In this document: piece by piece, positions 1,030-63,818 of the stretch
Numbering within the stretch: position 1 is the first letter of the stretch
Layout: the number at the start of each line of letters is the position of its first letter
Assembly: GCA_030141605.1 (NCBI GenBank)
Contig: JAQGDQ010000254.1
Location: forward strand, 186,001 to 250,000
Source: Tubiluchus corallicola
Lineage: Eukaryota > Animalia > Priapulida
Length of the DNA: 64,000 nucleotides
Direction: 5' to 3'
Program-made: the position numbers and the translations under genes
Notes under the pieces: generated by a model
What the model saw: only the letters and a program-made list of their open reading frames with translations
What the model was told of the DNA's origin: nothing
Database searches by the model: none

Positions 1030-1232
1030 CTGATTAGTATCAGAAGGCATCGGAAGCAGAGTTGGTCCAAAGCAAATAGCAAGGTTGTACGGTTCCATCA
1101 TATTTTCATCACTAAATTCAGATAGATGATTCAGAAAAGAAAACAGGTATCGAAGCACGACAAAGACCGGTCGAGGAAGAGTCAGCAGTAAGCTCCGAAC
1201 TCTCTCAACAAAATACTCGGTTGGTTCTAAAA
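1030..1232 (-). CDS. SRGAP: srGAP RhoGAP exon (FLEPTEYF...RYLFSFLNHLSEFSDENMMEPYNLAICFGPTLLPMPSDTNQ)
   Basis: Inside ORF 979..1275; ttaccag and gtaaat boundaries; phase 1 to 0; N.M...NLAICFGPTL RhoGAP motif. Confidence 0.95.
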
Positions 1233-1944: not shown

Positions 1945-2079
1945 AGGCACATTTAACAAATTGGTCAAACATTGCAGCTGGTAAGAGCGGTTCCCTGAGT
2001 TCTCGGAGGTACATTTTAAGCAGACCAGCCACACTGTTTACGTCATTGCACTCAATTGCATCCGTTAGTGGGTCTTCTC
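1945..2079 (-). CDS. SRGAP: srGAP RhoGAP exon (GEDPLTDAIECNDVNSVAGLLKMYLRELREPLLPAAMFDQFVKCA)
   Basis: Inside ORF 1874..2182; gtgcag and gtaagt boundaries; 135 nt, phase 1-1. Confidence 0.95.
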
Positions 2080-3119: not shown

Positions 3120-3258
3120 CTTTTTCGAATAGATTCCTCAGTTCGTTGACCTCCACTTGCGACCCAGAAACCCGGAATATTCCCTGCTGGTGTAATCCGT
3201 GGATATTAATGGTTCGTATGCAGCTCTGTACAACCTGTGGTACATCTTGACCAGTAGC
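3120..3258 (-). CDS. SRGAP: srGAP RhoGAP exon with arginine finger (ATGQDVPQVVQSCIRTINIHGLHQQGIFRVSGSQVEVNELRNLFEK)
   Basis: ttttag and gttttt boundaries; phase 0 to 1; GIFRVSG catalytic Arg intact. Confidence 0.95.
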
Positions 3259-4777
3259 CTAAAACATGCAGCAAGCTCTTAGTGGTAATCTCATTAAGAA
3301 ATGCTTAAAGCCTTGCAGATTGCCAGGATTTGAATGAGGTTAATGTCATGGGCAGCTTAAGCAAAGTACGTCTCATCAGAATGATTGGAACAAAAACACA
3401 CAAACAAATTGGATCTATCTTATGAATAAATGGTGCTGTTTTAAAATGCTGCATGAAAGCAATAAGTATGCACAGCAGATATGTATATGTACATATATAT
3501 ACATATATAGTACTACTGTTTGTTGTATTACTATTATAGATATACTCAGTTAGCCGTAAATTGCTTGACTTTGAAAAATACTTAGTGAATATCGAGAGTT
3601 TTACCCTCCCCAAAACTACAAGAGGATACTGCACGTTGTCACTGCAACTACACAAATAAACTACACATATTATTCTTAAGAATAAATGGTGACGAGGAGC
3701 AGATTGAAACTGTCAAGAACTGTCTAGTGAATTTATTACTAACATGTTCATATTTTAGAAGCATTTGTGTGAAAGCTTCTCTGAAAAAAACAGGAAACTC
3801 AGTAGTAGATTCTGCTGTTTCGCCTAACATAGCCAACTTACTAATAAACTAAATTCATAAATAATTTATTAACAAAAAATTAACAAACTCCTCGATAGGG
3901 ACAATTATAGCTCATACTGCCATCTATTGTTGGATTTCCTAACTGCCTACAAAACATAATTCTGCTATTTCTGTGATAAATGTCCCATTGTTCATGCAGC
4001 GTTACACTCAGAAGAATAGTTCATTTTTTTCTGGCACTTAATGTACTAAATTGTAATTTTGTTCAATTAAACAGTCATTTATCCACCAAACTTCAGTTTA
4101 ATGCCGCAGCTACGAATATGCTAGGCATCTCAGTTAATTAGAAATTACTAATTCAGCAAATCAAACTGAAATTAGAATTAATTTACTTTACCTGTCCTTG
4201 GACTTCGTTAGTCTTGCGTATGATTATTTACTATTCAATTTATATTAAAAGGATAGCTGACTAGATGGCCTATTGATTGCCTCACTATTCTCTCTCACCT
4301 CCACTTGCATTAATAACTATTAGGACACATCTATCTGTATATACCTTTATATTCTTGATGTAGATTAGATGTGGTTATTGTATTTTTTGTAGTATGATGG
4401 ACAAAAATAAATTTTAATTCAATTCAATTCAATAAATTTTGAAGACAATTTCTACAGAAGGAAAGCAGCTAAAACCCAGAATCCTGGTCAAGTGCCTCCG
4501 GGTTTGACGTAAATGACGTGCATTGCTTTGACAAATCTGTAATTTTTCTTATTATCAATGCTTGTATGTGAAAATGCAAAAACTACCTAGAATTCTTTCT
4601 CATAACCATGCACATAAATTTTCATTTAACTTAACAATTATGTAAAAGAAAAAACGGAATTCCTAGTCTATCTTATGTAAGCTACTTCTTCGGCTTGTTC
4701 AGTACTTTGCCTGATAATAGATGGCGCCAGGTGTAAAACGACAATTCAAACTTGAAATTTTGAATTAGTTGCTTTAC

Positions 4778-4981
4778 CTCAACGTACTCCAACAAACTGC
4801 CACCAAACAATTTTGGCTGCAAGTTAGGCTTGTGTTGACCCGCTTTGCACTTCTTATGTTTTGACACCGGTGGTTTTTCGTAGTTATCATCCACGCACAC
4901 CTGCATGTGCTTCTCTATCATGGCGTGCTTTGCCTTCAGACGTGCAACTAGGTTGTTGTTCTGTATGTATTCTCGAAATTT
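4778..4981 (-). CDS. SRGAP: srGAP exon, linker into RhoGAP (KFREYIQNNNLVARLKAKH...QPKLFGGSLLEYVE)
   Basis: Overlaps ORF 4682..4921; ttttaaag and gtaaag boundaries; 204 nt; PKLFGGSL.EY marks the RhoGAP start. Confidence 0.93.
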
Positions 4982-5232
4982 CTTTAAAATAAAAAATGCA
5001 CATTTCTGACCATAATCTTATTACCTTAGCCAAGATGATGAAACAAATTCAAGTTAACAAAATAATCATCTAAAATTCTAGTGAAACTTTATGTCACACC
5101 AAAGATACTATTTTTCAGTTAATTTCACGAGAATGTGTTAAAAAACATTACAGTAGTCTTGTAACTAATAAATTTTGAAAAACATTACAGACCTGAAAGA
5201 AATTCAATTTTACTAAGTTTGACAAAACCTAC

Positions 5233-5388
5233 TTTTAAATAAAATGACTCGGTTTCAAGTCGCTGTTCGCGATTCCGTGCCATGGATTCAACTCTTCGCT
5301 GCCCAGCAAAATATTCGTAGCAGTTGTAGTCACAAATATTCACGATGTTCATTAGAGCTGTTTCAGTCGACTCTAAAGTTTTCCAAAT
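5233..5388 (-). CDS. SRGAP: srGAP exon (IWKTLESTETALMNIVNICDYNCYEYF...QRLETESFYLK)
   Basis: tttcag and gtaggt boundaries; 156 nt; WKTLE...DY.C...ETE.FY motif. Confidence 0.92.
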
Positions 5389-5875
5389 CTGAAATTTGAA
5401 AAGAAATATTTATAAAAACTAAGTTGGGCTGAAAAGTACCATTTCTTTTTAATCTTGCTAGTGAACGCTATAAGTAAATCTTAAATGGACGTTATTCTAC
5501 AGCCACTTTTGCAATGAAGAAACAAAGTAAAAATCTATGACAACTGTCCTGCACCAGAACAAATTTGATTTTCATAGAAATACTCCACTTTCAGATTTTT
5601 CTTTTTTTTAATGTTAGTCTCAGAATAAATTATTTTCATTTATAATATCTTGCAGTTTTGGACGTTACTATCACTGCACATGTATGACATGTATGTACTG
5701 TATTCACATGTAAAATATAATTCCTTGCTTCTTTCACAATTATGCAAACAAAAATAGATGGAGTTTGAATCTTTGATTTTCACTTGCTCTTGAATTTTGT
5801 GTTGGCTATAATACTGCATTACCGAATCACTGACCCGATAATTAATGCTTTATTATTCTGTGTGCATTTTTTTAC

Positions 5876-5977
5876 CTCTTCACTTTCAGTACGCAAATCC
5901 ATGAGCCGTGCACACAGTTGCCTATACCGTTGATCCACTTCTTCCTGCATTGACTTATGCATGAGAAATTGCGTTAT
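5876..5977 (-). CDS. SRGAP: srGAP exon (ITQFLMHKSMQEEVDQRYRQLCARLMDLRTESEE)
   Basis: ttgtag and gtaaaa boundaries; 102 nt, phase 0-0; RL..LRTESEE coiled-coil motif. Confidence 0.9.
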
Positions 5978-6990
5978 CTACAAACACAATAACAGTTTTC
6001 TTACAAATTTCTGTTTAACCAAATATTAGGTGAGCAATAGAGATTTATTAGTGTATGATAGTACTGTGACCTCTGAAAGTGACCCTGAAAAACACCACAA
6101 AGTGATCAAGAAAAACTAAAAATCATTATATTTATAATATAAAAGCCATAAGGAACTACAAGACAAAAATGTCTGCACAAACAACAGCTGAAAAAATGAT
6201 ACACTAAACTAGTAAATTTATGAACTTCTTTACTTTGAAAAAAACCAGGGTTAAAAAGGTTAAAGCAAGACTGAGACTCAGCAATACCGTTCTTGTTTAC
6301 GGATAGTGCACTCAACCATCTCATATTACAGAAAACAATCTAATCACCTTACACAACAACCGTCCTAATTGATAAATTGATAACACCTGCTATAATTTTC
6401 ATTAGTTTATAAATTACCACATGTCATTAATTTATCACTTAAGATAGATAATGTGCAAGTTGATTTGATTGTTTTCTGTAATGTAAGATGTTTGTGCACA
6501 AATGTAAGTGTTATTGTGGATGAAAACACGAGAAAAGAAAATTATTAGTTTGTATTGTCATAGGATTATCGTATTTTGGCATAGGTTTTCTTAGGAAGTG
6601 CTTTTGTCCACTATTTTTTGCAGACATTCTGACTTACGATTTTGATTGCTTTTGCTTCTCTCAATCTTTAAAGATGTCGATGATTGGACCAGCAAAAACT
6701 TAGCCCATAAGCAGACCATTTTTGCACAAGTATTCTGTTTTATTGTAAGTAGAATTCTAGCTAGCTAACTAATCTATTGTTTTACATAAGAAATCATAAA
6801 GGGTATAATTTCACTGCACAACTCAACTTAGCAATGCTAGTGGCTGAAACAGCAAAAATTTCGACTGCCATTTTTGTTCAAGCGTTTGTCGTATAATAAG
6901 TGGATTCACACTAATGAGTGTATTGTTTTATACAAGAAGTCATAAATATCATTGCACTTTGTGTATTAAATTAAATGTGAGATGCTTTAC

Positions 6991-7212
6991 CTCATCATCC
7001 TTATGTGGCTTGTACGTAAACTTCGTTGGAATTAAAAAGGCAGACCGGTAAGCCTCCAAAAACCTATCCTTATCTGCCCGAGCATCCAGTTCACGTATGC
7101 AGTGGTCCATGGCATCAATGCCAACTTCCAGAGACCTCTTCAGGGACTCATCGCAACTAATGTGCATCATCAGCGCACGTGCTACGGAATTGTGAAACCC
7201 AAAGTCTACCGA
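6991..7212 (-). CDS. SRGAP: srGAP F-BAR/F-BARx exon (SVDFGFHNSVARALMMH...FTYKPHKDDE)
   Basis: Overlaps ORF 6949..7170; cttatag and gtaaag boundaries; 222 nt, phase 0-0. Confidence 0.93.
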
Positions 7213-7674
7213 CTATAAGAAACACGGGAACAAGATGATGAAGTATTACAAAAATAAGTTAAATATTAGCCAGAAACAAGGTTGTGAAATGTAGCAAAGC
7301 TTTCAAAAATCTTGACAAAATTTAGTTTTAACTGTAAATGTACATACAGTATTTTAAGTTTTTTATACAGTTTAAAATAAACAAACTCAACTTGATGGTA
7401 GCATTGAGACCAAAATCAGACTCATTATCAAAGCAGTGCCTCTAAGTTGAGCCACTGAACTATAGGAGGTGTCTTAGCTACGTTCAAATAAGAGTAAGAA
7501 TAATAAGAGTAATAAGAATAATAATAAGTTTTTGTACATGGCAAACAGGCAGAATAAGTGTAGCAGTGAAATTCTGTTTGAAAAGTATAAAGCCATGACC
7601 ACTTAGCTTTGAACCCACCTGACACAGGGGTCACGATTAAATGGGATCAATGTTCAAACATTTTTTTTACTTAC

Positions 7675-7803
7675 ATCTATCAAGTCTGATATGTCGTCTA
7701 CATAGTACTTCTGGACAGCCGCATTGGCACTTTCCACACACAGTAGATACTCATTACGTGCTTTAAGTGCTTTAAGCCGAGTTTCCGCAAATTTACTTTC
7801 TCG
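7675..7803 (-). CDS. SRGAP: srGAP F-BAR exon (RESKFAETRLKALKARNEYLLCVESANAAVQKYYVDDISDLID)
   Basis: ttttag and gtaagt boundaries; 129 nt; KARNEYLL...KYY..D.SDLID F-BAR motif. Confidence 0.95.
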
Positions 7804-8618
7804 CTAAAAACATAAGTGGGAATTAGCAGAATTGGCAGACTAAACAGAAATTATACACTGCCAAACAGCTGACACACCAGCAAATTTGCCTATCAAAAAC
7901 TGCATTTAAAGCTATAAAAATATCAAAATTATTTTACATATGTTGATTACAGGTTATGACAAATATCTATTTCAGGTTACACAAATACACATATCTATTA
8001 TAGATATTACTCGTGTTAATTGTGGGTTTGTTCTGTCTCTAATAATAATCCTGATATTACCATTATTGTTTATTATAAGTATAGCATTTTGACTTAATGA
8101 CTAAAAATCACCAAACAATAAATCAAATATTGTTTTATATTTTGTAGAAAAGTTCATTGCAGATGTATAATATATATACTAAACAGTAATGACTGAAATT
8201 TTGTTAAAATGCTGTATCTTATGGATTCATACCTATTTTTTCCTAAACATCACTACTCTGTTTTTATAAGTTTGAGTGACAAACCTCAAGAAAATGTTCT
8301 AACCTAACTCAGCTTATTTAGAATAAGTTGCAAGTCAGTTTACAGTGTTGAGTCTGCGTTGCATGACAATCTTTTTAAACACATTCGTGTAATTAGTGTA
8401 GTTAAAAGAATAAGTACACCATTTATGTGCTCTGCTACATGCCTGTAAAGAACAATGTTTTCCAGGCAAAAGTCTCAAATACAAGGTTGCAAATCAGCAT
8501 TTAAAAAGCGATTTAAAATTAGGATAAACAAAAATAAGTTCATAAAAAACAAATGTAAAAAGCTGCTAAAACATGTTCTACTTAAACTGAAACCTTTGTC
8601 AATGCACTGATGAATTAC

Positions 8619-8777
8619 CTTTGTTGTCTCTTTGCGGAGGAGCCGAACTTTCCGACTTGCCGCTAATTTCTCTGTGCTCATTGACTGCTCAAGCTTCTGC
8701 TTTTGTTGCTCTACATTGCGCAGTTTTATCTCTGCATGTTTGTGCTCGGTCTGATATGTGTGATATGACTTCAAGGA
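8619..8777 (-). CDS. SRGAP: srGAP F-BAR exon (SLKSYHTYQTEHKHAEIKLRNVEQQKQKLEQSMSTEKLAASRKVRLLRKETTK)
   Basis: Inside ORF 8475..8855; ttcacag and gtaatt boundaries; 159 nt, phase 0-0. Confidence 0.92.
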
Positions 8778-9524
8778 CTGTGAACATAAAGAAATCTTTA
8801 ATATCAAGTGCAATTGTGTGCAGTCAGATAAATCAAAATAAATTATGATGTACACAACTAACGGATATCAACTATAAAATGCACTATTTTTCCTGTACGA
8901 TAGTCATTTCTTAATTAAGTACCATTTTAATTTTCTTGCATTGGTTCTAATTGGTGTTGGTGATATAAATACTAAAACATCTGTGAAAATGTCTATGAAA
9001 ACTTTTCACAGCAAGAAAAAAGTTCTTACAAATCTCACTGGCAAAAAATCGCTACAATGCTGTAGCGATAAAACCATCCACGTAAACATTAATTGCAGTG
9101 AGAAGTTACATTGTTCTTCATATCATCCGTGAAAGTGAGAAAAATGCCACCATGCTGGCTTAACAAGGTTTGCTTTATAGCTAAAATGTGGCAAACTTTA
9201 ACACTTTAATATAGTATGTTTAGAAAGTCAGAAATTATTAGTTATACAGAAAAAGTTATACACATATATTTGTATCATAGTAGTTTGCTTGTTTGCTGGT
9301 GAAATAAACTGAATTTGAAATTTGACCAGCAATTTGTCTGGCTGCAGTGAAAAAAGTTATTGCATGTCAGAGCTTTTTTCTTGTTACCTCATAATCAATA
9401 GTTAAAACATGCAAATGATTTAGAGAGCAACATTCATTTTCTCTGAGCATCATAAATGCGGGATATTCGCAGCGAGAAAATGCTACTCAAAACTCAATGC
9501 TACTTAGTGTGGCAACAAACTCAC

Positions 9525-9587
9525 CATTTGCAACTCATTCAGCACCTTTAGCAATTCTTCGTGTTCTTCAGCAGCTACTTCTCGACA
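9525..9587 (-). CDS. SRGAP: srGAP F-BAR exon (CREVAAEEHEELLKVLNELQM)
   Basis: tttgcag and gtgagt boundaries; 63 nt, phase 0-0; HE.L.KVLNEL motif. Confidence 0.92.
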
Positions 9588-10370
9588 CTGCAAAAACAGA
9601 GGCTCTTCTTGAGTGTTTTCAAAGTCAAAACAATTTATGCAGCACGAAGCCATTCTTCACTTTATTAAAATTGATAGATTTTGCTTTTTTGCATTCAATT
9701 TCACAAAAATTATTGATTATAATTATACAACTTAATATGAAATCCATTTAGTGAAGTAAAGAAATTGTGTTTATTCACCATTATCCTGTTCTTCTTTTAC
9801 AAGCTTCTCATTGTGGTTTCATTAATGAGTACTTGAATAGACAATTAGGCAATGCAAAAGTGTACATTTTCACGAAAAGTCTGTTCCTTCTTATAATAAC
9901 ATATACAATTTTGTTCTTGTTTACAAAGTGTTCAAAACTTAACATGTAATAAATGCCAGTAAGATGTAACAAAATAAGTTCTATGTAGAATAAAAATTGT
10001 AAAAGAAAGCTGAGTGGTCACAGTGTGTGTGCTTAGCAACTAAAGTTAGGCAGCACTGAGACTAGTCAGCAAAGGGAAAAGCGAGCTAAGCTAAGCTCGT
10101 CTGCTAAGCAGGTTAAAATATTTAGTGATGAGGCAATAAAGTGGTGGAGGTACTTAGCCACATTCGAATGTATGTGTAGGCTATATAACCTGATTCAGTG
10201 TCTCACCACTAAGTTTTTATCCCAGTTAGCAGAGTGACCCTGCCAAATTGTATAATACCAAAATATGCCAATGACTTTTAACCAGTAAACATTTTTTGGA
10301 TGTTAGATTAATTTCTGACACTTCACTTTTTTATTGGTTTTTAACATGTGAAAGTCATTTGGTTAGTCAC

Positions 10371-10536
10371 CTTTTTATGAAGTCTTTGCATGTCTTCGGA
10401 TATGTCCGCAAGGCGTGTGGTGAGCTGGGTGCTATAGATTTCACTCAACACAGCATGGTCACGGCTTTGCTGCTTGGCTTGTGATAAAACGGTCTGCCAG
10501 CAGGTGAATGCTGAAAATAACTGCCATTGGTCCCGC
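10371..10536 (-). CDS. SRGAP: srGAP F-BAR exon (RDQWQLFSAFTCWQTVLSQAKQQSRDHAVLSEIYSTQLTTRLADISEDMQRLHKK)
   Basis: ttacag and gtgact boundaries; phase 2 to 0; CW...SRDH..LS.IY motif of srGAPs. Confidence 0.93.
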
Positions 10537-10586
10537 CTGTAACATAGAAAAAAATCAAAAGATCAGCTCACAATTACAGTAAGTTT

Positions 10587-10931
10587 AATAAGTCTTTTTA
10601 CAGTTCCAGCGATTGATCATGATCGTGAAAAGGTCACAGGTTAAGTGTACTAGACAATGCATTTGTGTACACTTGACAATGCATTGCAGCCCAAGCAGTT
10701 GTAATAGTAACAGTTTTAACAGCTAGCTAGAACCTTACCTAGTTCATTTTTTCTTGTTCCCAAGCAAGATCCTGCTAGTAAATCACTCTACACACAAACT
10801 ATGCAGCTGAAGGCTTTGTTTTATGCACATGTCACGTGACGGTTGTAGTTAAGACGTGTTGCTGTGGTACACTTAACGTTTGACCTGCAGCAACTGCGTA
10901 TGTGCACAACGAAACTGTGAAAAGGCTTATT
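10587..10931. mobile_element. MITE family A, copy 1 (~345 bp, ~19-bp TIRs)
   Basis: aataagtctttttacagtt ... aactgtgaaaaggcttatt inverted termini; homologous copy at 39730-40112. Confidence 0.8.
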
Positions 10932-13102
10932 ACAGACATCCTTGCCAAATTACAGTTTCTACCAAATTATCAACTTTAAATGAACTAATGAAGTGAATAA
11001 AAATTAATTTTGGAACTTAAAAAGTTAGCTGATGCATAAAATATTAGTTCGATTAATGTATTGGAAAAGCATGACTTTATTGTTGCAGAACAACAACACT
11101 TAAATCATTTACAATGTACAAAACTACGTTTCGGCTTGATCAAAGTCATTCGCACAAAAATGACTTGGTAAAATAGATTTCTGTTTATTGGATAATAAGC
11201 TGTACTGATTAAAAACCTTTTCTTTAATAGTTGTCTGCTATATTCAGCAATTTGTGTTCAAAGATGGCTTGGATGAAACCAAAGCCTTGTAAAAGAGTTG
11301 AGTGGTACCAATTTATTGATGATGTTGCACTAAAACTACACTAAACTCTTCAAAGCAGAATAAACGAAACTTGTAAAATTTTGTGTTTTAAAAAAATCGA
11401 ATTGTCTGCAAATTATACAACAAATCTCAAAGCTAATACACCCTTTCCCTGCAATGGTTTTAACGATCAGTCAATAGATATCAGCCCAAAACATACAGCA
11501 AAACAATGTTGGTTGAAATCCATTTTATCCTTTTACAGCAGGATTTTTAGTTTATTCTGTAATTGACAATGCAACTTCAATGGCTAGACATGCTTGCAAA
11601 AGCCACTGCAATATGCACAAAATAAAAAATAAATAAATTACTCAAATTCGTCAGCACATAACTAAACTGAAATAAATTTTCTGCTATGTATGGGAGTAAG
11701 GCTTATTGACCAGTGCCAGCCTAATAGGGTAAATACACGTGGTAACAACAGTCTTGACAGTCTCTAATTGATGACAAATAAAACTGAAATACTGTGCAGA
11801 CATACACTTATGATAAAGAGCAGCAGTAAAGTAATAACGATAAATAGTAAAGCTTATAAAAAGGCAAACGAAGAAACAAAAAGAAATTTGCAGTATTTTC
11901 AGATTCCTACATATAATATAGGCTCATTTTATGCATTTGTGTTTCTAATATTGAGCATGAAATGACTATTTGATAACTCATGTTGTAACACTTGCAGTGG
12001 TGTCCTATCTACGAAATAGAGAAAGTGGAGGGGGAGATAAAATAATAAAACAACCGTCACTAGCAACTCTCAAACTTTTGACATATGCAGACACTGCAGT
12101 GCCATCTGTGCAAAAGCATGTGAATCAGGCAAGTTGCAAACTGGTGACATGTATCAAACTATGGCACCTACGTTTCATTTGAATCAGGCTGTTTAGGCTG
12201 TGCTAACTTTGTTAGTCTGTTACGAAATGATGTTGATCTTCTGAAAACATCAATACTACAGTGTAATTACTGAAAACAAAAATGACATGTTGTCTAAAGA
12301 AACAAGTGATACTGATCAAAGTTCCTATCAATCGTCAATATGAAATAAATGTACTAGTTTAGACTGTTTAGCATAATTTATCTATACTAATAATATAAAT
12401 TTGTCTTATAGAACAAATTTATATTGGCACTAACTAGGAGTTCTGTCAGCCACCCTCAGTTACGTAACTGCTCTGTAGAATATGATGAATTTAATGATGT
12501 TAATTTCATACTGTTTCACAACAAAAGTCTGTAAAAAGGGTTGGAAAAATTCTTTTATATAAACATGGTTTGAAATAATGATGTAAATCAGATGCAATCA
12601 AATATTTTAAAATATTTTATTAATTAGCTCCTAATTTATATCTCATTTGTCCCCATAACGTCCTTCAAAGGTTTCTGAATACCTCAAGTCATTTGGTTTT
12701 AAAGAAAACAACGAAAAATATTTAAGTAGCTAAATTCAGTAATTTAATTAACTGGATATAATTTTGAACCTAAATTTTGATAATAATGTATATTCAATTT
12801 TGCATACTTGGTTTTCTATGATTAATAATAATTTAATTATGGTTAACAGAACTACAAAGCGGCACGCATTTTAATGAAAAGAAAAAAACAAATAAAAAAG
12901 TATCACAAAGTGGAATTACTTGAGCCAGCAAATAACCCCTGCTAATTCAAGTAACCCTATTATATGGTATATAATGTGCTAGCAACTTTTCCTTACAATT
13001 TATCAAAAAAGATCAAGTTGTCACTACAAAAAGTCTAATATAAGCTTTCTTTCTTGTTATTAACATTAAAGTTTACGATTGCACATTTTATTTATTACTC
13101 AC

Positions 13103-13286
13103 TTTTGTTTTTCAGCTTTGTGTTTGAGCAACGTACTCTTGACTAGCTTATCAAGTCCACGTGCATACTCCATCTCCACTTCCGCCCTCCGTCGGAAGAA
13201 ATCCTGAATCTCTGTTACAATGGATGTCAGTTGGTCCACACGGATGTCTAGACATTTCAACTGCTCTGCTAACTGTTGCTTAATAT
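13103..13286 (-). CDS. SRGAP: srGAP exon, start of F-BAR domain (xIKQQLAEQLKCLDIRVDQLTSIVTEIQDFFRRRAEVEMEYARGLDKLVKSTLLKHKAEKQK)
   Basis: Manual translation; tttcag acceptor and gtgag donor; phase 1 in, phase 2 out; QL.EQLKCLD...QDFFRRRAE.E..Y is the srGAP F-BAR N-terminus. Not in the ORF track. Confidence 0.93.
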
Positions 13287-51112: not shown

Positions 51113-51231
51113 CTAGTCCTGACAGACACATACATATTGAGCTTCATCATTTTGCTCAATGCATGATCCAGATGTTTTACCATTTTTTTTGCAACGGGCA
51201 TTACAATGACGATTGTTCGGAACATCACCAA
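51113..51231 (-). CDS. Defensin-like peptide, terminal exon (xGDVPNNRHCNARCKKNGKTSGSCIEQNDEAQYVCVCQD*)
   Basis: tctttttag acceptor, phase 1; CxxxC...GxC...CxC CS-alpha-beta signature followed by TAG. Confidence 0.85.
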
Positions 51232-51596
51232 CTAAAAAGAGTTAAGCTCATTAGTTTATGGACGGCAGCCACAGATGGTAGCTAATTATTAAATTCGTTT
51301 CTCTTTATTATGGATAGGTGGCTCTGATGCGCATTTACATCATCCTTATTTACATTATTAAGTTATCTGCAGAAGCATGCATATTGCATAATTACAATCA
51401 TTTTTTCATTTAAGTAAGGCGAGCGCATTAATGACCGTATGTAGGGTCGTACATTCACCTCACACTACTCAAATTATTTTATTTTATATTTATTGATGTG
51501 CTTTATATTGTATTTTTTGATGTATGAAATAAAATTCATAGTTCTGAATGACTACGTGCTGACTAATTATGCAGATTCAGGCGTGCTTTAGCAACA

Positions 51597-51695
51597 TGGG
51601 TTGACGGCTCACATGGTTAGAGTATGTGGCCTAAAGCCACAAATTTCTGGACTCGAATCCTGATGCACTAGCAATTTTCCCCGAGCCTCCTTTCT
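51597..51695 (+). mobile_element. tRNA-derived SINE head relic in an intron of the defensin-like gene
   Basis: A-box-like ggctcacatggttagag and B-box-like ggactcgaatcc; tail aatttt...ctcctttct shared with the minus-strand relic at 33490-33580. Confidence 0.5.
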
Positions 51696-52865
51696 AAATT
51701 TGACTGTTGATGGCAAACAACCTTGCTATTTCATTTTTTAATACATATTCACAATAGCTGCAAACAGCTAATTGCATATCACCAAGCGAGGTGTCGGACC
51801 TACAGAAATAAGTAGCATCGTATTTAAATTTTAGGAAATCTACATTAAATTAAAGTTAGTATGAGGCAAGAAAACACCCAAATTGCGATAGTATGACTCT
51901 GTGCTATACTATGAATTTGAGAAACAGAGTGTCTGATTAACAAATGGGTGAGTAAATGATGCTAAAACTGTTTCCAGGCAATTTCACCTGCCATTGCCAC
52001 TTTTTTACTAGGAGAGGATTAAAAATATTACGACATAACCACTGAAAAGTGTTGGTAATTAGCTAGATTCCAGTCTTGCTACGACCATTAAATTGTAGCA
52101 CTTGTAGTCCTGCCATTGAATTCTGTGATCTAGGTTGCAGAATGCAGAATTGTATAAAAAAGAATTCATATAGCAGGTGTACACAGTTCATTAACTAGAC
52201 TTTCTGACTCAAAAATCAGCTTAAAGAGAAAGAAAAGGCAATTTTAAAGTACATGTACATCCACAAAAACTTTCCATACAAAGTTATATTACTAAGCATT
52301 ATGCTTACTTGCCTGAAAGACTTATAATTGGAAAAAGATTCTTAATAATTTAAAATGTTCGTGAAAATTGGTAAAATGTCACCTTCCCAGTGTGCACCAC
52401 CGACTCACTAAAGCTGTCGTCAAAATGGCCGCACTCAACAGTCATCATGGGAGTTTAAATTTTCAAGTTTTATGCAGCTTTACCGCTAATACAAGTTATG
52501 CACCCAATAAGGCAGCATGCAGCTGATACAAAATTTCAAGGCATATTTTTTAGCATTACGTAACTAAAAGGTTTTCTCTTGCGTTAAGTAAATTTTATTA
52601 AAAATTGTCAAACTGAATTATCAAACATTTACATTTGCTTTCATCAAAAAAACAAAGAAAACTTGCAATCGAAGTTATTAGTCTTTCAGTTTAAAAATGA
52701 AAGCCAACACGAACACCTTAATGCACTTATATCATATACAACGAAAGGTGCAAAACAATTTTAGTATAACACTAAAGTTATTAATCAACAATACATGTTA
52801 AGCCTACGACTGTATGTGATTTGCATAACTAGAAAAAAGTAACATTTAGGGATTACTGAGCTTAC

Positions 52866-52904
52866 GCATTTTGCAAGGCCACGGTTGTCCCGGATCATCG
52901 GTCC
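52866..52904 (-). CDS. Defensin-like peptide, 39-nt microexon carrying Cys1 (RTDDPGQPWPCKM)
   Basis: ttttttttactctag acceptor and gtaagc donor; symmetric phase 1-1; supplies the first of six cysteines. Confidence 0.7.
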
Positions 52905-53497
52905 CTAGAGTAAAAAAAATAATCCAAGACAGCATTCATAATAATCAATAACTAAACAATACATATAAATTGATATATATATATATTCTGAATATATGTG
53001 TGTGTGTGTGCGTGCGTGCGTATGTATTGAAAAAAAAAATCATTGGACGTAACACAAAGATCACTAGATCAAATCCCGACTTTGTCCAGATTTTTTACAC
53101 TTCTTTCCTTTCAGTTTGGTTTTAAAATATCAATAATTCTGTGTTCTTTCCATCATGGTCAGAAGTAAATAGTTGTGAGTGCAATGTTCACGGATTAAGT
53201 GGCGTTACGTTATGCAGTTGCGGAATAGATGAAATCGGTTTGTATTGTTTTCAATGCACATTTTTATCAGACTTGCATTTAGCATTATTCTTTTCTTGCA
53301 GCTATTTCCTATTAGTATTTTATACACAGCTATTCCGCAGCCGGATAAACGCCTTCAGTATGCCTGGTAAACGCCACTCTGAATGTTGCTGCAATTCTTC
53401 TGATATATTTAACATGTTTCTAGACTACAAATTAAATGTTAATGATTCTCTGATAATGAAGCAGCACAACAATACTTGATATTCTTCTTAAAATGCT

Positions 53498-53774
53498 ATT
53501 TGCATTTAATGGAAAAGCCATATTCGTATCTCTCCTCACAGATAAATTGCTGAAAAAATTAATTAATTATGAGTCTATAGTTTTTACACTGAAATTACCA
53601 ATGATATTGATTCTACAATTTTGAGTACCACATCACCAATAACTATTCAAAATTGTAGAATCAATATCATTGGTAATTACAGTGTAAAAACTATAGACTC
53701 TTAATTAATTAATTTTTTTCTGCAATTTATCTGTAAGGAGAGATACGAATTTGGTTTTTCCATTAAGTGCAAAT
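53498..53774. repeat. Long near-perfect inverted repeat (~127-bp arms, ~20-nt spacer), fold-back/MITE-like
   Basis: 53498-53624 is the reverse complement of 53647-53774 with only scattered mismatches. Confidence 0.92.
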
Positions 53775-54086
53775 GACAAAAATGGTCATGCACAATGACA
53801 AATGGCGTGAAGATAAATTCTGATTTATGGCAACCATTAAAAAGATGCTAACTCTGCTATTTAACATTATTAAAGAATAAACAACAAAAATAGTTATAAC
53901 AACAAATTTTTCCAGGTGTATGCAAGTAAAGTAATTCATGCATTGACAAAAATGATATGACAAAACATGCTAAGAAATGGAAAAAAGCTAAGAAGTGAAT
54001 TACTTACTGGTTAACTGGCAAACGACTCTAAAAATTAAACATAATTAAATAACTGCTAAATATTATTCAGTTATCATGCAACATAC

Positions 54087-54156
54087 TTTGAGCTTGCACA
54101 ACTGCATTAAACATGATTGATACAAGAAGTAATGTGGCGAGGATTTCCTTCTTCAT
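54087..54156 (-). CDS. Defensin-like peptide, signal-peptide exon (MKKEILATLLLVSIMFNAVVQAQ); the exon spans 54087-54181
   Basis: ttttttcag acceptor at 54182; caaaATG start context; basic n-region, hydrophobic core, VQA|Q cleavage site; phase-1 gtatgt donor. Confidence 0.8.
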
Positions 54157-54910
54157 TTTGCACAGTCAATTCAGTCGGTATCTGAAAAAACAAAGGAGAC
54201 TGCAAATTAATTCTGTAACCGTAAAATACACTATTTACTTGCAATCACTAGCACTGTGTACGAGTAATTATATAAGTAACTGTATATAGATATTCAGTTG
54301 GTACTGAATACGTAGCCAGTAATCCTTTCCATTTGAATTCCTTGTCAAAATTCTTTCAATCGTATTACAGTCTTACCAAGCAAAGAACAGCTGTCAGCCA
54401 GTTTACTACTATTCAGCATCAATTGGCTATTTAGCACTTAGTTTTAGAAAAGGCGAAGTATATGAATCTTCATTCTTTCACATATTGTAATTAATGACAA
54501 CATATTTGCCCCATGAAGTTATATACACTAATCATTAGACAAAAGCCCATCAAATGAGTGTCAAAATGGGCAGCGATTTTACCCAGAATGGAAAGCTTAT
54601 GTTTACATTATAGTAAGCGAGATTCGTGAATAGCAATATACGTCAGTGATATAACGTACAGTTTGTTATGTATAAAAGAAAGTTATCGGTTTTTGGCCAC
54701 AAATGAATTCGACATCAATTATTTGATATTGCAAAATAAATTGACAAAAAGTACAAAATAAGACTTTAACAAAACTCATTTTAATGGGTCAAGAGGTTTA
54801 AGGTGACTATCTAAAAAACTGTAACAAAATTAAAGCACTAGAGTAGTACTTACTACTACACATGTAGTTCAAAAGAAAAAAGTAAACGAAATACTGAAAT
54901 CTAAACTTAC

Positions 54911-54982
54911 CAAACTGTAATGCCAAATGAAACGAAGGGCTCCAAGTGTGTTTTACATAGGGAAAAAGTTTCTCTTATATAA
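54911..54982 (-). promoter_or_regulatory. Candidate TATA box (TATATAAG, ~54974-54981) and short non-coding first exon (~54911-54950) of the defensin-like gene
   Basis: TATA-like element about 70 nt upstream of a consensus TTG|gtaagt donor at 54910, which could splice to the acceptor at 54182. Confidence 0.45.
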
Positions 54983-58287: not shown

Positions 58288-58532
58288 TCAACGATGCATG
58301 CCTCTGATCTGACGGAAGTAATCCGGCGCTGCCTCATGCAACCACTCCGGATTGGTGACAATAAGATCACGCATGTAACATTTACTTGTCTGTACAAGTT
58401 CGTTGTATATCACGTAACCCGGCTTACACATGAACAAGCAAGACGACGGATGAATGCTGACTTTATGTTTTGTTGTCCCCAATGTAACATACTGGCCCTC
58501 TCTTTGTAGTTCTGCCGCATTCATAAACATCC
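58288..58532 (-). CDS. DHX33: DHX33 terminal exon, OB-fold (GMFMNAAELQ...IHPSSCLF...YNELVQTSKCYMRD...WLHEAAPDYFRQIRGMHR*)
   Basis: Inside ORF 58288..58554; ttacag acceptor, phase 1; IHPSS and WL.EAAP.YF are typical of the DEAH/DHX33 C-terminus. Confidence 0.9.
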
Positions 58533-59204
58533 CTGTAATCATCAATAAAAGCAAAAACTGTTACTTGTAAACCAATCAATTAATGTGCACTGTGTAGTCT
58601 GCACTAATAATAATATTATTACCAAAGCCTCAAAAAGGCATTTGCATGCAAATTTGCAACTCTGCAAAACCAGTAGTTCGCTAATGCACTTATATATCCA
58701 AAAAATTATGGATGTCAGAACAAAACTAGACTAGTGTCCCACATACTGTAGTCTGGCTCTGTAAACTAAATGACCTTTTTTGCTCAAGATTTGTAGGTAA
58801 TTTTTTTTTGGTAAGACCTCTTAACAATAAATTTATCAATGCAAAAGCCTAAAATGTACAGGACTTACGAATATGCAATGTTTTATCAAAATATTTCATA
58901 CATTTTCGTACCTAGAATTTGCAACTAGAACATCAAAAGGAAACCGCTAGGCAAGTGATTAAATGTTTAGCTTCAGAAATTTTTTGGGTAACAAGGTTAA
59001 TTCCAATGGGCGAGTGGGTAACAGATTCAAATCAAAACTGCTATGCTAGCCTATTAGCGCATGATAAATGTACCAGTCTACAAACAAAATGGCACTTAAC
59101 ATGATTGTTTTTACATACATAATGCACAAAAGGGAAGTAAAGATGACATAAAAGTAGGAAAGTTTCTTTGGGCACATACAGATTTTAAGTACGTGAAGGA
59201 AAAA

Positions 59205-59351
59205 TATTGAGTCAATTAAGCGGAGTTATTTCAGTCAAATACTGATAGTTTTTATGTATATTTGAAGAGAAGCAGCCCGTTCCAGGCGTTTTTGAGTCAA
59301 TTAAGCGATTGAATCAATTAACCGTGAGTCTATTAAGTGGCAACTACTGTA
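59205..59351. mobile_element. pogo/Tigger-like transposon end
   Basis: Repeated gagtcaattaagcg units ending in ...aagtggcaactactg|ta (CAGT terminus next to TA). Confidence 0.5.
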
Positions 59352-59607
59352 TAACAAAATTACATAGTTGGAAATAGTTCAATTAAACAGTAGGCACTAA
59401 CATATGTTGAGCATGCACAATTGTTAACAACCTCACAAGATTCAATGATGTGCACAATCATCAGTAAAAAAGGTGCAGCACTATGAAACATTAATAGTGA
59501 ATACATAGTATACTTAGTGAAGTAAATACCTCTTCCTCTTCAGGCAACGAAAGGGCGAAATAATCAAAAACCAAATAATCGACTTCACTTTGAATGAATA
59601 TGCTTAC

Positions 59608-59791
59608 CCTGAGCAAAACACCTGCGAACGGCTGCCAGATCCTGCCCGCAGGAGCGCAGGGCTATATTAGCTCTAATACACAAGTCTTTCAATTGCTGTC
59701 TAATCTTATGTGCCATTTGGAGATTTCGGAAATTGAGATAATTTTCAAAACACCATTTTTTCTGATTGGTTTCTAACACACTGCGAAACGC
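59608..59791 (-). CDS. DHX33: DHX33 exon (AFRSVLETNQKKWCFENYLN...IRQQL...VRRCFAQ)
   Basis: Overlaps ORF 59585..59779; ttttcag and gtaagc boundaries; phase 0 to 1. Confidence 0.9.
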
Positions 59792-60504
59792 CTGAAAAGA
59801 AACTTATACAGTGACAAACCTTCTGCTACTCAATTCAATTCAATTCACCTTGTATTTCAACATGAAAATGTCCATATATAGCACTAAAAAGATAAATTAC
59901 TATGCACACAAAGAATACTAACCCTACTAATTACATGCAACAACAACAACAAATATTAAAAGCTACCCACATCAAATAAGAAATTTGGGTTACCTACATC
60001 ATTGTCAACATGAGCAAAATCATTATTTTTGGTAACATTAAATATTATTGTTAAGGTGCATAAAATTTAAATTTTATAAAAAAGTAAAAGATTTAAAGAA
60101 AACCAAAGCAAGGACAATAAATGCAAATTTTAAAGATTAGCAAGCGAATGCCACACTCTAATGAAGACTCTCATTAGGTATTTGTTATCAAAGTGAACAT
60201 AATTAAGTAATTAATCGAAAATCACGCTTTTAAAGACTTAGAAGTCATTAATGTCCCATTTTCACTTAGTTGTTTAAATTTCTTTTCTTCCCTTTACCTT
60301 TGTTTCATCATCCAATTTTGTTGTGATTTTCTTAAAAAATAAAATATTAGAAAAACACCAAAGGTTGTGGTAGTGTTACCTAAATTTATGGCGTAAACAT
60401 GTACAATGGAGAGGTATTTTCAAAATTCTTCATTTGCCAAGCAATTTCGCACATAAACTACTGTTTTAGTTTTATATCACATATATAGAAAGCTTGAGAA
60501 ACAT

Positions 60505-61040
60505 ATCAAAGGAATTTAAAAACTTTTGAACAATATAGGAATTGCTGCCTCCAACATATCTTCACATTCAATGGCAAGATAGGCAAACAAATGTCAGGGT
60601 TCTGGAACAGGCACGGTGTACCAGTAAAGAAGCCATCGTTGCATGGTACCAGCTTCGTTGGTTTGCGCGTTACCGACAAATGCCTGAAGAATGTCTTACT
60701 AAACAAATTCTGTATAATGAACTTTCTGTAGGGAAAAAACAACAGGTGGTTAGAAGAGGAGCTGCAAAGATATCAATAAAGCATGTATGAAGAAGTTTCA
60801 CACCAACCCAGATATATGCAAAAAGATTGCCAATGTTTGAACCACTTGGCATCATCTTATTTGTGAAGGTAGCAAGTATTTTGAAGAAGATCATTGTGCT
60901 TGCATTTCGGAAAAAGGCAACAATGAAAGGAAAAAGAACAGCTGAGTCAAATCACAGACCATGTACTACCTCGGACCACAAAATGTAATATATGTGTGCG
61001 AAATTGAAGGTATAGTCATCAAAGAACACATCAGGTCATC
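60505..61040 (+). mobile_element. Decayed RTE-clade LINE 3' fragment in a DHX33 intron, antisense to the host gene
   Basis: ORF 60542..60790 has I.WQD..TN..VL..A...S.EA.....QLRW....RQMP...L.KQILY.EL..GK, typical of the RTE C-terminus; remnant Cys/His finger near 60985-61030. Confidence 0.75.
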
Positions 61041-61232
61041 TAATGATAAAACCATTAATGTTGGAGTACCATAGACCATGGTACTGCTAACTAAATTTAG
61101 GCTACACGTACCCTGATGTAAAGATTGCCAGAGAGAGAGAGAGAGAAACAGTTTTACAAATCAATGTGACATGCCAGCAGTTATTTAAGAACAACACTAA
61201 ACTTGCCATTTAGAAATAAATTACTCAAATAC

Positions 61233-61453
61233 CTTGTAAACATTCAAGTATGTCAGGAGGTCGCCATCACTGGAAACAAATTTGCGTCTTACTGCTAATG
61301 CTTCATCTCGCTTGACTTGTGGAGTAACTAGAATCGTGTCACAGGAGAGGACTGCTACCAAAGTGATGACTTCTTCGGTGCAGCCCGAATCGCGAGAGGC
61401 AATTATCACTTTAGACAGCTTGGGATCAAGAGGAAATGTTGACATCCTTTGAC
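61233..61453 (-). CDS. DHX33: DHX33 HA2-domain exon (QRMSTFPLDPKLSK...DGDLLTYLNVYK)
   Basis: Overlaps ORF 61221..61445; ttttcaag and gtattt boundaries; phase 1 to 0. Confidence 0.9.
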
Positions 61454-62625
61454 CTTGAAAAGAAAACAGGAATTTATTACAATATAAGGGTATTTTCGCC
61501 TACAAATACTATATATTAACACAGATTTTGAGGTAACAAATTTAACCAGCTTTCAGATGACTTGTTGAAACTATAACTAAATTAGTATGGACAAATCAAA
61601 GCAACAGAAAAAACTCGGTCTTCACAGTGAACGATAAATATGTTTTTTAAACCCTATGACTGAATTACAATTAATATTAGATAAAAAAAGCAAATTTTTA
61701 GTTCTTGAAAGTCAAACATTAAATATATGAGCAACAGCTTCATCTTCAAGTAAGCAGTTTGGTACTTCTGTGAAAAAGTCTCTCACCAATGGCGCTTAAC
61801 CACCAACAGTTTGGTCATAGCAGTCGCTTTTTTCTGCTTCTCACATGCTTACCCTGGATATTCAAAGATGAAGAACAATCACCTATTCATAAAACCCAAT
61901 TTTGTCCATGGAATTCTGTCATTCATAGGACACCTGCTTCCTGAAAACTTTAACTGTATTCAAGATGACATCAACGAATACCTTCTACAATAAGCAGGCT
62001 AAAGTATGAACTCTTCCCAGACATGCATTCATTTCTTTACCATTTCAGCATAACCTCTTCCTTGAGTGGCACTGTTTGGGACAATTTTTACAAAAAAATC
62101 AACAGCAACTCAGCACTTGAGTGCAGTATGTGCAATAGTTAAACATTTTACTGTAGCATTGATTCAGTTTTGATTATTCGTTTCACAAAAGGAAAAGACA
62201 TACAGGCTGTCAGGAAATGACAGCCTCGCTATAATTAAAAGTTACAATACGTACGTTGGAACATATTTTTCGACTGTCTATCCATCTACCTATGTTATTT
62301 CTTATTTTAACATTCTTTCCACTTCCATATTGTCATAAATCAAAAATCAACAAAGTTTCTTGAAGAAATGAGTAAAGACACCATTCCATTTGAGAAACAA
62401 ACATGAGGGTAAGGGATAAATGTCCATTTATCCTTTACTCCTCAGAGTTACAAATAATGTCAGTACTGAATATTGTGATAAATGTTTTTTACTCAAAATA
62501 AATGCTGTTCCTCATGGTGTTGCTCACTTTTATCTATCCTTTTCGGTTTCTTCTATGAAAAGGAAAGCAATCATTTCCTGACACCCCTATCAATTTTCAG
62601 GTACCTATTATGGCTACCAGATTAC

Positions 62626-62871
62626 CTATTGCAGTCAAACTCAGCTGTCCGCTTTCCTGCATAGCAGCACCTAACAACTGCAACTGCTCCGTAGCAGCCT
62701 GCAACGTCTGACTGTCCGGCTTATCAAGAAAGTCAAAGTTTTCCACATTTTTGAATCCCAGAGCCAACAGCTGCAGTACGACATGAGTTAAATTGCAACG
62801 CTTAATCTCCGGGACCGGATTGTCTGGCAGCTGCTTGTATTCTGACTGAGTATACAGTCGATAGCATGTAC
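62626..62871 (-). CDS. DHX33: DHX33 exon (GTCYRLYTQSEY...PEIKRCNL...FDFLDKP...LTAIG)
   Basis: Inside ORF 62597..62884; aatag and gtaatc boundaries; 246 nt, phase 1-1. Confidence 0.9.
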
Positions 62872-63524
62872 CTATTAGTAGCAAAACTACACAACTTGAT
62901 ATACAACTATTATTCCTTTTTCTTTGTTACCTTATTAAATTTGAAATGCATTTTGTTTAACACAAAATAATACAGAAAACTTTTCACAGTCACATTTCCA
63001 TTATCCTACTAGTAGAATTGAATAATGAAAAAAATCTAACTGAAAACCACACAACCATAAAAATGTTTAATAGTCAGATTTAATTAACTTTTGGTATTTC
63101 TGCCCCAAGATGACACTATTAATTGTGTCCCAAGGTACGTGGCGGCAAATCTATTTTTCAGAAGAATCCTGATTTTTCGCCAATTTTCGGTTCGGCTAAA
63201 ACACAACCATGTCCTTACAGTAACAAGTGATCAAACTAAATGCACAGCAATAATTAAAAATGTATATAAAAATTTAAAAATTGCATTTCCATATTTTTTA
63301 TCACTAAGATGAGAAAAACACTGATACACGTCAAACAAAATGACACATTGCACATTGGGAATAAAAATTAACTGATAGTTCTTGGAATAGCAGCAAATTT
63401 CGCTGCATTATTAACCGAAGCATAACTAAAATTAAAAGAAAAACAAAAAACATAAAATAAGAAAAATACATTAAATACAAATTATGGGTAAACAATTCAG
63501 CAAAAAAAGTAATTACAAGCTCAC

Positions 63525-63818
63525 CTCTCGATTCCCGGCCCGCCCTGCCGGTTCTCTGCCATGCTTGTGCTTTTGATACACGTTGAACTTTTAACAGGTC
63601 AAGACCACTTCCCGGTGCATAAGTCCTTGCTTTAACCATCCCAGTATCAACTACATATTTAATACCGCTTATGGTTACCGATGTTTCTGCGACATTTGTA
63701 GATACAATGACTTTCCGAAAACCAGGTGGTGTAGGTTGAAAAATTCTCATTTGTTGATGACTAGGTAAAGAGGCGTATAATGGCCAGACGAGCAGTCTTG
63801 GCATATTGGAAGGTAAAC
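63525..63818 (-). CDS. DHX33: DHX33 exon, helicase C domain, motifs IV-VI (PLYASLP...RKVIVSTNVAETSVTISGIKYVVDTG...QRTGRAGRE)
   Basis: Inside ORF 63331..63867; ttttag and gtgagc boundaries; phase 1-1; VQRVSK.QAWQRTGRAGRE is DHX33-type; upstream exons lie outside the window. Confidence 0.9.

Follow-up and report, generated by a model that had tools for sequence, protein, structure and literature searches.

A probable microexon-split gene of a likely scalidophoran for a predicted secreted CS-alpha-beta peptide

Do three short minus-strand coding pieces lying between a DHX33 gene and an srGAP-like gene make up a real gene, and what would its product do? We addressed these questions within the 64-kb window (the whole stretch of 64,000 nucleotides that was analysed). 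An initial annotation had described three minus-strand exons with GT-AG ends and phase-1 junctions encoding 75 amino acids, and all of its coordinates were confirmed in the sequence. What we have here is probably an intact gene of four exons, the transcription and splicing of which we infer; its secreted product would be a CS-alpha-beta peptide with three disulfides. Its coding exons are:

54087..54181, minus strand: coding exon 1, including a short part of the 5' UTR (from sequence; acceptor at the 99.4th and donor at the 96.1st percentile)
52866..52904, minus strand: coding exon 2, a 39-nt symmetric phase-1 microexon with Cys1 (from sequence and splice scoring)
51113..51231, minus strand: coding exon 3, with Cys2-Cys6, the helix and beta-hairpin core, GxC and the stop (from sequence, Pfam and fold model)

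Translation would start at the ATG at 54156, and the 70-nt coding part of exon 1 (54156-54087), which ends at a phase-1 donor at 54086, encodes a signal-peptide-like stretch of 22 residues and the first mature codon. This N terminus has a basic start, a hydrophobic core (hydropathy maximum of 3.03 in a 7-residue window) and, by a hand rule, Val/Ala at -3/-1; cleavage would fall after Ala22, leaving 53 of the 75 residues of the precursor, and the mature peptide may begin with a pyroglutamate. The coding introns, of 1182 and 1634 nt, are both GT..AG and both in phase 1, and exon 3 is 119 nt long including the stop. With the junction codons read as X, the Cys gaps along the peptide are 11/3/9/10/1, which confirms the earlier spacing of C-x11-C-x3-C-x9-C-x10-C-x-C with GxC before Cys4 in minus-strand exon 3. 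The six Cys would pair as C1-C4, C2-C5 and C3-C6.

Across all six frames of the window the strict CxxxC..GxC..CxC pattern had a single occurrence, and none of 200 block shuffles contained it, so that a chance motif was rejected; the loose Cys pattern turned up in 10 of 200. Only the ATG of exon 1, out of 2523 in the window, passed a signal-peptide-plus-phase-1-donor rule, and no comparable one-Cys phase-1 microexon followed the window's other strong AGs (0/65 on the minus strand and 0/50 on the plus strand), both rules being generous because they were defined after the exons were seen. Among 85 candidate internal exons, the two that rank highest both start at 52904, each with exactly one Cys, and the exon-2 acceptor ranks first of the 145 AGs between exons 1 and 3 (99.5th percentile window-wide). 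Exon 2 has 59% GC, compared with a maximum of 56% in any other 39-nt window of both introns.

Three sequence signals upstream of the coding sequence point to a possible non-coding first exon: the TATA-like word at 54981, the GTAAGT donor at 54910 and a strong acceptor at 54181. The elements around the coding exons are:

54974..54981, minus strand: TATA-like word, putative core promoter by pattern scan
54911..54950, minus strand: putative first exon without coding sequence, its 5' end placed approximately (GTAAGT donor at 54910, 94th percentile)
53498..53774, no strand assigned: 277-bp palindromic foldback element, MITE-like, in coding intron 1 (z -26.8, 0 of 200 shuffles)

The TATA-like word is one of three between the end of DHX33 and 54911, and the putative first exon introduces no upstream ATG into the model. 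The foldback element contributes nothing to the peptide, and mobile-element-like inserts are present in both coding introns. A weak test for kB-like sites in 54157-58200 gave 0 against 0.05-0.35 expected; GATA sites were below chance, and no Rfam match was found in 48000-58300.

Splice scoring, with a 13-site model built within the window, placed the exon-2 donor at the 71st percentile and the exon-3 acceptor at the 75th, under all 13 leave-one-out training acceptors. An in-frame alternative donor at 52856, 9 nt downstream of 52865, scored slightly higher, and its use would lengthen exon 2 to 48 nt and the first Cys gap to 14. Two weak sites among the four coding splice sites, the nearby rival donor, the inserts in both introns and a closest canonical AATAAA 953 nt beyond the stop would all fit a decaying or silent copy, or a real exon 3 spliced to upstream exons other than those proposed. 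We consider this very unlikely, since the three exons hold frame and phase, contain no stop and retain six of six Cys, and since the window's only signal-peptide-like exon sits 2.9 kb upstream with matching strand and phase. Transcript contigs of one run under the same species label (13.2 million letters) left the defensin and DHX33 exons alike uncovered at 85% likeness; because this assembly is shallow and comes from a diverged relative, it weighs neither for nor against expression of the defensin gene.

The putative four-exon gene is flanked by the following genes:

58291..63818, minus strand: upstream neighbour, the last five coding exons of the DHX33 RNA helicase gene (domain and tree)
979..13286, minus strand: downstream neighbour, exons of an srGAP-like RhoGAP gene (2 of the 4 scanned exon frames carry a RhoGAP domain)

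Contamination was rejected, as both neighbours are spliced metazoan genes with the same GC (31-35%). We take the RhoGAP neighbour to be srGAP; the relative's transcript assembly holds two spliced srGAP contigs of ∼91-94% identity that join two introns. Two heuristic scans did not locate the first coding exon of srGAP, and the defensin gene may be nested in a long srGAP intron. In trees drawn without nematodes, nematomorphs, kinorhynchs, loriciferans, tardigrades and onychophorans, DHX33 grouped with Priapulus (support 97/95 with 26 rows and 93/97 with 13 rows), and AU tests rejected its grouping with arthropods (p 0.021), lophotrochozoans (p 0.020) and ambulacrarians (p 0.008). This placement of the DHX33 sequence indicates a likely scalidophoran (priapulid relative) lineage.

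The initial annotation had read the Cys frame as a CS-alpha-beta signature, and Pfam, structure prediction and fold searches all support that reading. With exon 3 alone, all six Pfam matches were defensin-fold families, and no defensin-fold match came from two frames read on the other strand of this DNA. Among the families that had been put forward, Toxin_3 just passed (21.7 bits against a gathering cut-off of 21.5, a margin of 0.2 bits), whereas Defensin_2 (14.4 against 20.4, among the two weakest scores) and Gamma-thionin were sub-threshold and Toxin_2 was absent from the six matches of exon 3; the second-best match was the pollen-coat SLR1-BP family (20.5 bits). The structure prediction proposed alongside the initial annotation, a single-sequence AF2 model of exon 3 that does not include Cys1 and leaves the third disulfide outside, gave a helix and a hairpin with a pLDDT of 84.9 (the five models span 75-85). 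The predicted helix (6-15) holds CxxxC, the second of the two antiparallel strands that follow it (20-25 and 32-37) holds CxC, and the gamma-core GxC at Cys4 sits in the predicted beta-hairpin. The superfamily is defined by this CSH motif, in which a helix carries CxxxC and the final strand carries CxC (PMC5116183), and both the motif and the order of a helix followed by two antiparallel strands were found in exon 3 and its model. The n-loop before Cys2, which rests on predicted splicing and spans 11 or 14 residues depending on the exon-2 donor, would lie inside the superfamily range of 4-16 (PMC5116183).

In VIA-align, the first 11 rows were all solved defensins or scorpion toxins, headed by eurocin (Z 4.3) and including plant NsD7 and drosomycin (both Z 4.0), with Z never reaching 5; the drosomycin match had an rmsd of 1.6 A over 32 residues at 34% identity. 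The top 29 Foldseek rows had probabilities of 0.94-0.99 and no E better than 0.05. The ESM Atlas returned a single row, a Toxin_2 cluster whose score of 0.75 makes it no more than a lead, and no row once Toxin_2 was excluded. Overall, these results predict a CS-alpha-beta (cis-defensin) fold for the exon 3 peptide.

Searches for relatives found no homologue among proteins of 75-2000 and 23-74 amino acids, exact-word seeding limiting both searches, and no paralogous exon within the 64-kb window. HMMER against 1.84 billion representatives gave four matches at E <=0.001 (an Ig-repeat protein, an FG-GAP/RTX protein and two low-complexity repeat proteins), all of which were discarded as repeat-driven noise. 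CS-alpha-beta peptides are known from nematodes, tardigrades, velvet worms, arthropods, molluscs, annelids, fungi and plants, and their trees come out unresolved (PMC5116183); none from a scalidophoran was found described in the literature searched. The peptide adds to a known superfamily a new member from a lineage not sampled before, and its fold and gene layout are ordinary.

What the peptide would do was approached through its closest likenesses. The best PDB sequence match had an E of 0.011, and the top PDB and Foldseek rows were long-chain scorpion Na+ channel toxins, at <=39% identity over 33 aligned columns. The likeness lies mainly in the helix and in the loop that precedes Cys4. The helix-to-Cys4 segment matched 29 PDB sequences, namely 26 long-chain scorpion toxins, drosomycin and two ARD1 entries; neither K+ toxins nor classical antibacterial insect defensins were among the 29. 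Together with Toxin_3 as the best Pfam family and the Toxin_2 cluster as the sole ESM Atlas row, these matches would suit a real gene whose peptide is an ion-channel modulator, or a toxin-like secretion aimed at prey, predators or the animal's own channels; drosomycin, too, reportedly interacts with a fly Na+ channel. We nevertheless hold this to be quite unlikely. The PDB rows are inflated, as a small number of scorpion toxins is represented there by many almost identical variants, no paralogue accompanies the gene in the window, and we know of no venom system in scalidophorans. Long-chain scorpion Na+ toxin genes share the phase-1 intron located where the signal peptide ends (PMC5308243), but the toxins have eight Cys, an N-C wrapper disulfide and a long C-terminal extension (PMC5116183, PMC4999892), whereas our peptide has six Cys, lacks the wrapper, stops two residues past Cys6 and is 53 residues long, against 63-66 in the PDB rows. 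Short-chain scorpion K+ toxins have a short n-loop and a Lys-Cys4-X-Asn signature (PMC8252768, PMC5116183), which is absent from exon 3, and the n-loop here is 11-14. The term "toxin-like" in the initial annotation therefore holds for the fold, but not for the K+ toxin signature or for the fourth disulfide and tail of the long-chain toxins.

The charge of the peptide is close to neutral (6 K/R and 7 D/E over 51 non-junction residues) and unevenly placed: all five K/R of exon 3 fall within residues 7-18, giving a basic helix, and the hairpin has three acidic residues and no basic one. The features that define the two scorpion toxin families are absent. Because the peptide is approximately neutral with an acidic hairpin, we favour, by analogy and with a probability of roughly 0.62, a target-binding, non-lytic host-defence peptide in the style of heliomicin and drosomycin. 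The secreted peptide would bind a specific microbial surface target and would not act by charge-driven membrane lysis; by analogy with the same two peptides, its role would be antimicrobial, with fungi or other eukaryotic microbes as the most likely target class. A glucosylceramide-type lipid as that target is a guess, and a doubtful one.

A near-neutral charge and an acidic hairpin, atypical for lytic antimicrobials, would also fit a real gene with a non-immune extracellular role, its peptide inhibiting an enzyme or, in signalling or reproduction, acting as the ligand of a receptor, like some plant CS-alpha-beta peptides. SLR1-BP as second Pfam match, LURE, SP11 and brazzein among the fold matches, the single copy in the window and the lack of a kB-like site in the scanned region point the same way. 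However, the signalling-type fold matches (Z 2.5-3.1) rank below the defensins, and most animal CS-alpha-beta peptides whose activity has been tested are antimicrobial or toxic (PMC5116183), and we judge such a role unlikely.

The models for the favoured host-defence reading resemble the peptide in part. ETD151, derived from heliomicin, has Cys gaps of 10/3/9/7/1 and a pI of 8.2 and needs fungal glucosylceramide (PMC11848316). Heliomicin, ARD1 and ETD151 share the six Cys and similar gaps (11/3/9/10/1 here), with a fold match of Z 2.7 for the group and weak ARD1 sequence matches over the helix-to-Cys4 segment (E 1.1-5.3); however, the hairpin here is three residues longer and acidic, 11 residues precede Cys1, and the peptide is approximately neutral where ETD151 is cationic. 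The drosomycin-type group, for which reports are confined to arthropods, nematodes, tardigrades and plants, includes three-disulfide DtDRS variants, cremycins and mehamycin, and its nematode members have a phase-1 intron (PMC9751787). Drosomycin itself matches in fold (tied with other defensins), but its sequence match is non-significant (E 1), and drosomycin-type genes have one or no coding intron, compared with two here. The fourth disulfide of drosomycin and plant defensins, which joins Cys at the N and C termini (PMC5116183), is absent from our six-Cys peptide. Plant defensin families (Gamma-thionin, SLR1-BP and PF24552) gave sub-threshold Pfam scores of 14.7-20.5 bits and fold matches of Z 3-4, and the plant defensin-like PDFL2.1 aligned over residues 7-36, but the gene here is an animal one with two phase-1 coding introns. 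Antibacterial six-Cys defensins of arthropod/mollusc type (Defensin_2) and the fungal eurocin and plectasin share the six-Cys array of the reference scheme (PMC5116183), yet the hairpin here is longer and the peptide is not cationic. Nematode ABFs, mollusc eight-Cys defensins and macins, unlike this peptide, have eight or more Cys (PMC5116183).

That the peptide is the first scalidophoran member of a drosomycin/heliomicin/long-chain Na+ toxin branch, with similar microexon-split defensins forming a hidden family in priapulid and kinorhynch genomes that lack annotation, is a long shot; ORF-based annotation can miss such microexon-split genes. Homologues of Toll, Pelle, Dorsal and Relish are present in Priapulus (PMC7056985), which is without big defensins (PMC7203481). 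Since this defensin is almost neutral, has an acidic hairpin and comes from an animal that is likely marine, activity that tolerates salt would be a reasonable expectation to hold of it as a candidate. Provided that it is expressed, the peptide would be a candidate for an immune effector of Scalidophora, and it adds a data point on the origin of the drosomycin-like branch, either ancestral in ecdysozoans or taken over from plants, a claim summarised in PMC9751787.

We re-examined three short minus-strand exons that the initial annotation had read as a CS-alpha-beta peptide gene, and the sequence features described earlier were confirmed. The features concerned are as follows:

54981: TATA-like word
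54910: GTAAGT donor, upstream of the coding exons
54156-54087, minus strand: coding exon 1, 70 nt, with ATG at 54156
52904-52866, minus strand: coding exon 2, 39 nt
51231-51113, minus strand: coding exon 3, 119 nt

As read from the sequence, the two introns (1182 and 1634 nt) both run from GT to AG in phase 1, and the joined exons encode a 75-aa precursor, 53 aa of which follow Ala22; both split codons were entered as X. The claimed Cys gaps of 11, 3, 9, 10 and 1 are present in the joined translation and, as had been stated, an ORF track misses the putative gene, because none of the three exon frames is among the 78 stop-to-stop frames of at least 60 aa in 40000-64000. Across its six frames, the window holds a single instance of the strict CS-alpha-beta pattern. 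None of 200 block shuffles contained that pattern, and a looser one appeared in 10 of them.

Splice sites were scored with models of 13 donors and 13 acceptors taken from exons of the neighbouring genes, the upstream RNA helicase gene DHX33 and a downstream srGAP-like RhoGAP gene; one training intron was later borne out by a spliced contig (joint 4981/5233). In these in-window models, the exon-1 acceptor (54181) and donor lie at the 99.4th and 96.1st percentiles, the donor at 54910 at the 94th, and the exon-2 acceptor, the top one among 145 AGs lying between exon 1 and exon 3, at the 99.5th. Two sites are weak. One, the exon-2 donor (71st percentile), still falls within the leave-one-out range; the other, the exon-3 acceptor (75th percentile), scores under all 13 training acceptors but is nonetheless the top AG within 51205-51600. 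Among 85 candidate symmetric phase-1 internal exons, the best two both begin at 52904, carry one Cys each and differ by donors 9 nt apart, giving a first Cys gap of 11 or 14; use of the alternative in-frame donor (52856, 9 nt past the proposed one) would add three residues to the n-loop between Cys1 and Cys2. Under rules set after the exons had been seen, exon 1 was the sole pass among 2523 ATGs for a signal peptide plus phase-1 donor, and no comparable one-Cys phase-1 microexon followed other strong acceptors (0 of 65 on the minus strand, 0 of 50 on the plus strand). The TATA-like word, which lies upstream of the donor at 54910, points together with that donor and the acceptor at 54181 to a putative non-coding first exon. 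We consider it improbable that the locus is silent or spliced differently.

The Pfam scan, structure model and fold searches were run on the 38 aa of exon 3 by itself, which hold five of the six Cys. All six Pfam families matched have the defensin fold: Toxin_3 (21.7 bits, alone in exceeding its cut-off, 21.5), SLR1-BP (20.5), Defensin-like (20.1), Gamma-thionin (17.7), AtDEF-like (14.7) and Defensin_2 (14.4). Two opposite-strand frames gave no defensin-fold Pfam match. AlphaFold2 without an alignment predicted a helix (residues 6-15) and two strands (20-25 and 32-37) with pLDDT 84.9 and pTM 0.52. Foldseek returned no match for this model at E <=0.001; its top rows were scorpion toxins and plant and insect defensins (probability up to 0.99). 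Against 48,161 chains, VIA-align gave 79 matches at Z >=2 and none at Z >=5, low values that would be expected because the model has just 38 residues, and the first 11 rows, tied within one Z unit, were defensins or scorpion toxins. By criteria in the accessible part of PMC5116183, the predicted peptide has the CSH motif, the typical six-Cys array and the GxC gamma-core, the last before Cys4 as claimed. Overall, the CS-alpha-beta reading is supported for the fold and likely secretion of the predicted peptide.

The description "toxin-like" stands for the fold only: scorpion toxins are among the top fold rows, but the defining features of both toxin families are missing. These are the Lys-Cys4-X-Asn signature of the short-chain K+ toxin family (accessible part of PMC8252768) and the wrapper disulfide and tail of the long-chain family, and by its sequence the predicted peptide is not a member of either. 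Ion-channel activity appears improbable. The phase-1 intron at the signal-peptide end is, as proposed, typical of scorpion CS-alpha-beta genes, being present in all those examined in PMC5308243 (as far as accessible), where one gene has a second phase-1 intron and two have a 5' UTR intron; the same source describes the signal-end intron as general in secreted proteins, and gene structure is therefore not diagnostic.

Transcription would start from the TATA-like promoter, and four exons would be spliced into an mRNA whose product would enter the ER, be cleaved after Ala22, form three disulfides and be secreted. The N-terminus may carry a pyroglutamate, depending on where cleavage occurs. Ahead of Cys1, a stretch of 11 residues that is acidic and rich in proline could be a pro-piece. 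The charge is nearly neutral (6 K/R, 7 D/E and 1 His among 51 non-junction residues); on the predicted fold, the helix carries basic residues, the hairpin acidic ones. Given general knowledge of antimicrobial peptides, this near-neutral charge and acidic hairpin disfavour a simple cationic lytic mode. The helix-to-Cys4 segment resembles long-chain scorpion toxins, drosomycin and the antifungal insect defensin ARD1, not to classical antibacterial defensins, although none of its 29 matches (E 0.12-9.4) is significant. The Cys gaps are near those of ETD151, a heliomicin-derived antifungal peptide whose activity depends on fungal glucosylceramide (PMC11848316, accessible part). Because of the near-neutral charge, the helix-to-Cys4 likeness and the ETD151-like gaps, we favour by analogy a target-binding host-defence peptide, most likely acting against fungi or other eukaryotic microbes (probability roughly 0.62). 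A glucosylceramide-type lipid as the specific target is unlikely, and so is a non-immune role.

Coding intron 1 contains a 277-bp near-perfect palindrome (53498-53774; arms 92-96% complementary, 16-nt loop), found once in the window, with a DNA hairpin of -115 kcal/mol (z -26.8); the element is MITE- or foldback-like. Coding intron 2 holds an interspersed repeat (52232-52550) with 72-74% identity to 26738-27180, 25 kb off. A 21-nt pair, 90% complementary, between exon 3 (51146-51166) and intron 1 (53936-53956) is probably due to chance. A 168-aa stop-free frame at 18163-18669 (minus strand; sub-threshold RVT_1 match, E 2e-5) is likely a LINE remnant. Heuristic scans located no first coding exon for the srGAP-like gene in 13400-58250, and the candidate peptide gene may lie nested within it. 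Spliced srGAP contigs from one run with the same species label match 4981-5336 and 7028-7805 at 91-94% identity, which is wide for one species; their source is possibly a congener or cryptic species. Many contigs of this run partly overlap intronic 10595-10931, which suggests a transcribed or high-copy repeat.

One exon of the window DHX33 shows at most 76% identity among the best 120 of 1142 matches; across five exons, Priapulus caudatus (61% identity) is top by summed bits (580 versus 543). The window copy joined Priapulus in a 26-row tree (support 97/95), which used 25 of the 120 proteins picked for taxon spread, and in a 13-row tree (93/97), both drawn without nematodes, nematomorphs, kinorhynchs, loriciferans, tardigrades and onychophorans. 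AU tests, whose groups were chosen after the first tree had been seen, rejected grouping with arthropods (p 0.021), lophotrochozoans (0.020) and ambulacrarians (0.008). On this identity, these trees and these tests, the window DHX33 is likely from a scalidophoran other than P. caudatus, as judged from one gene only.

Three protein searches, which have little power at 38 residues, returned no homologue of the predicted peptide. The accessible literature pairing priapulid, scalidophoran or kinorhynch with defensin or antimicrobial peptide yielded no effector peptide of this fold from the group and nothing on a kinorhynch defensin, and the accessible text on scalidophoran antimicrobial peptides contained no occurrence of "defensin". 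As far as accessible, PMC7203481, on priapulids and defensins, concerns the absence of big defensins, and priapulids are unmentioned in PMC5116183 (main text and five supplements), PMC6780910 and bioRxiv 10.64898/2026.03.03.709459. An earlier record may exist in subscription papers or Priapulus database annotations. Most invertebrate groups already have known CS-alpha-beta peptides, so one was to be expected here, and the predicted gene adds one more member to a known superfamily, in a lineage that has been sampled little. According to the accessible part of PMC9751787, the drosomycin-type branch is said to occur only in arthropods, nematodes, tardigrades and plants, a distribution put down to horizontal transfer. 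The accessible part of PMC5116183 shows that trees of CS-alpha-beta peptides lack resolution and that cremycins cannot clearly be called drosomycin-like. Because of these doubts and a weak sequence signal for membership, we regard a scalidophoran member of this branch as a doubtful reading of the predicted peptide. Such a member, if real, would favour ancient inheritance, because the usual placement of Scalidophora is as an early-diverging branch of Ecdysozoa that predates land plants.
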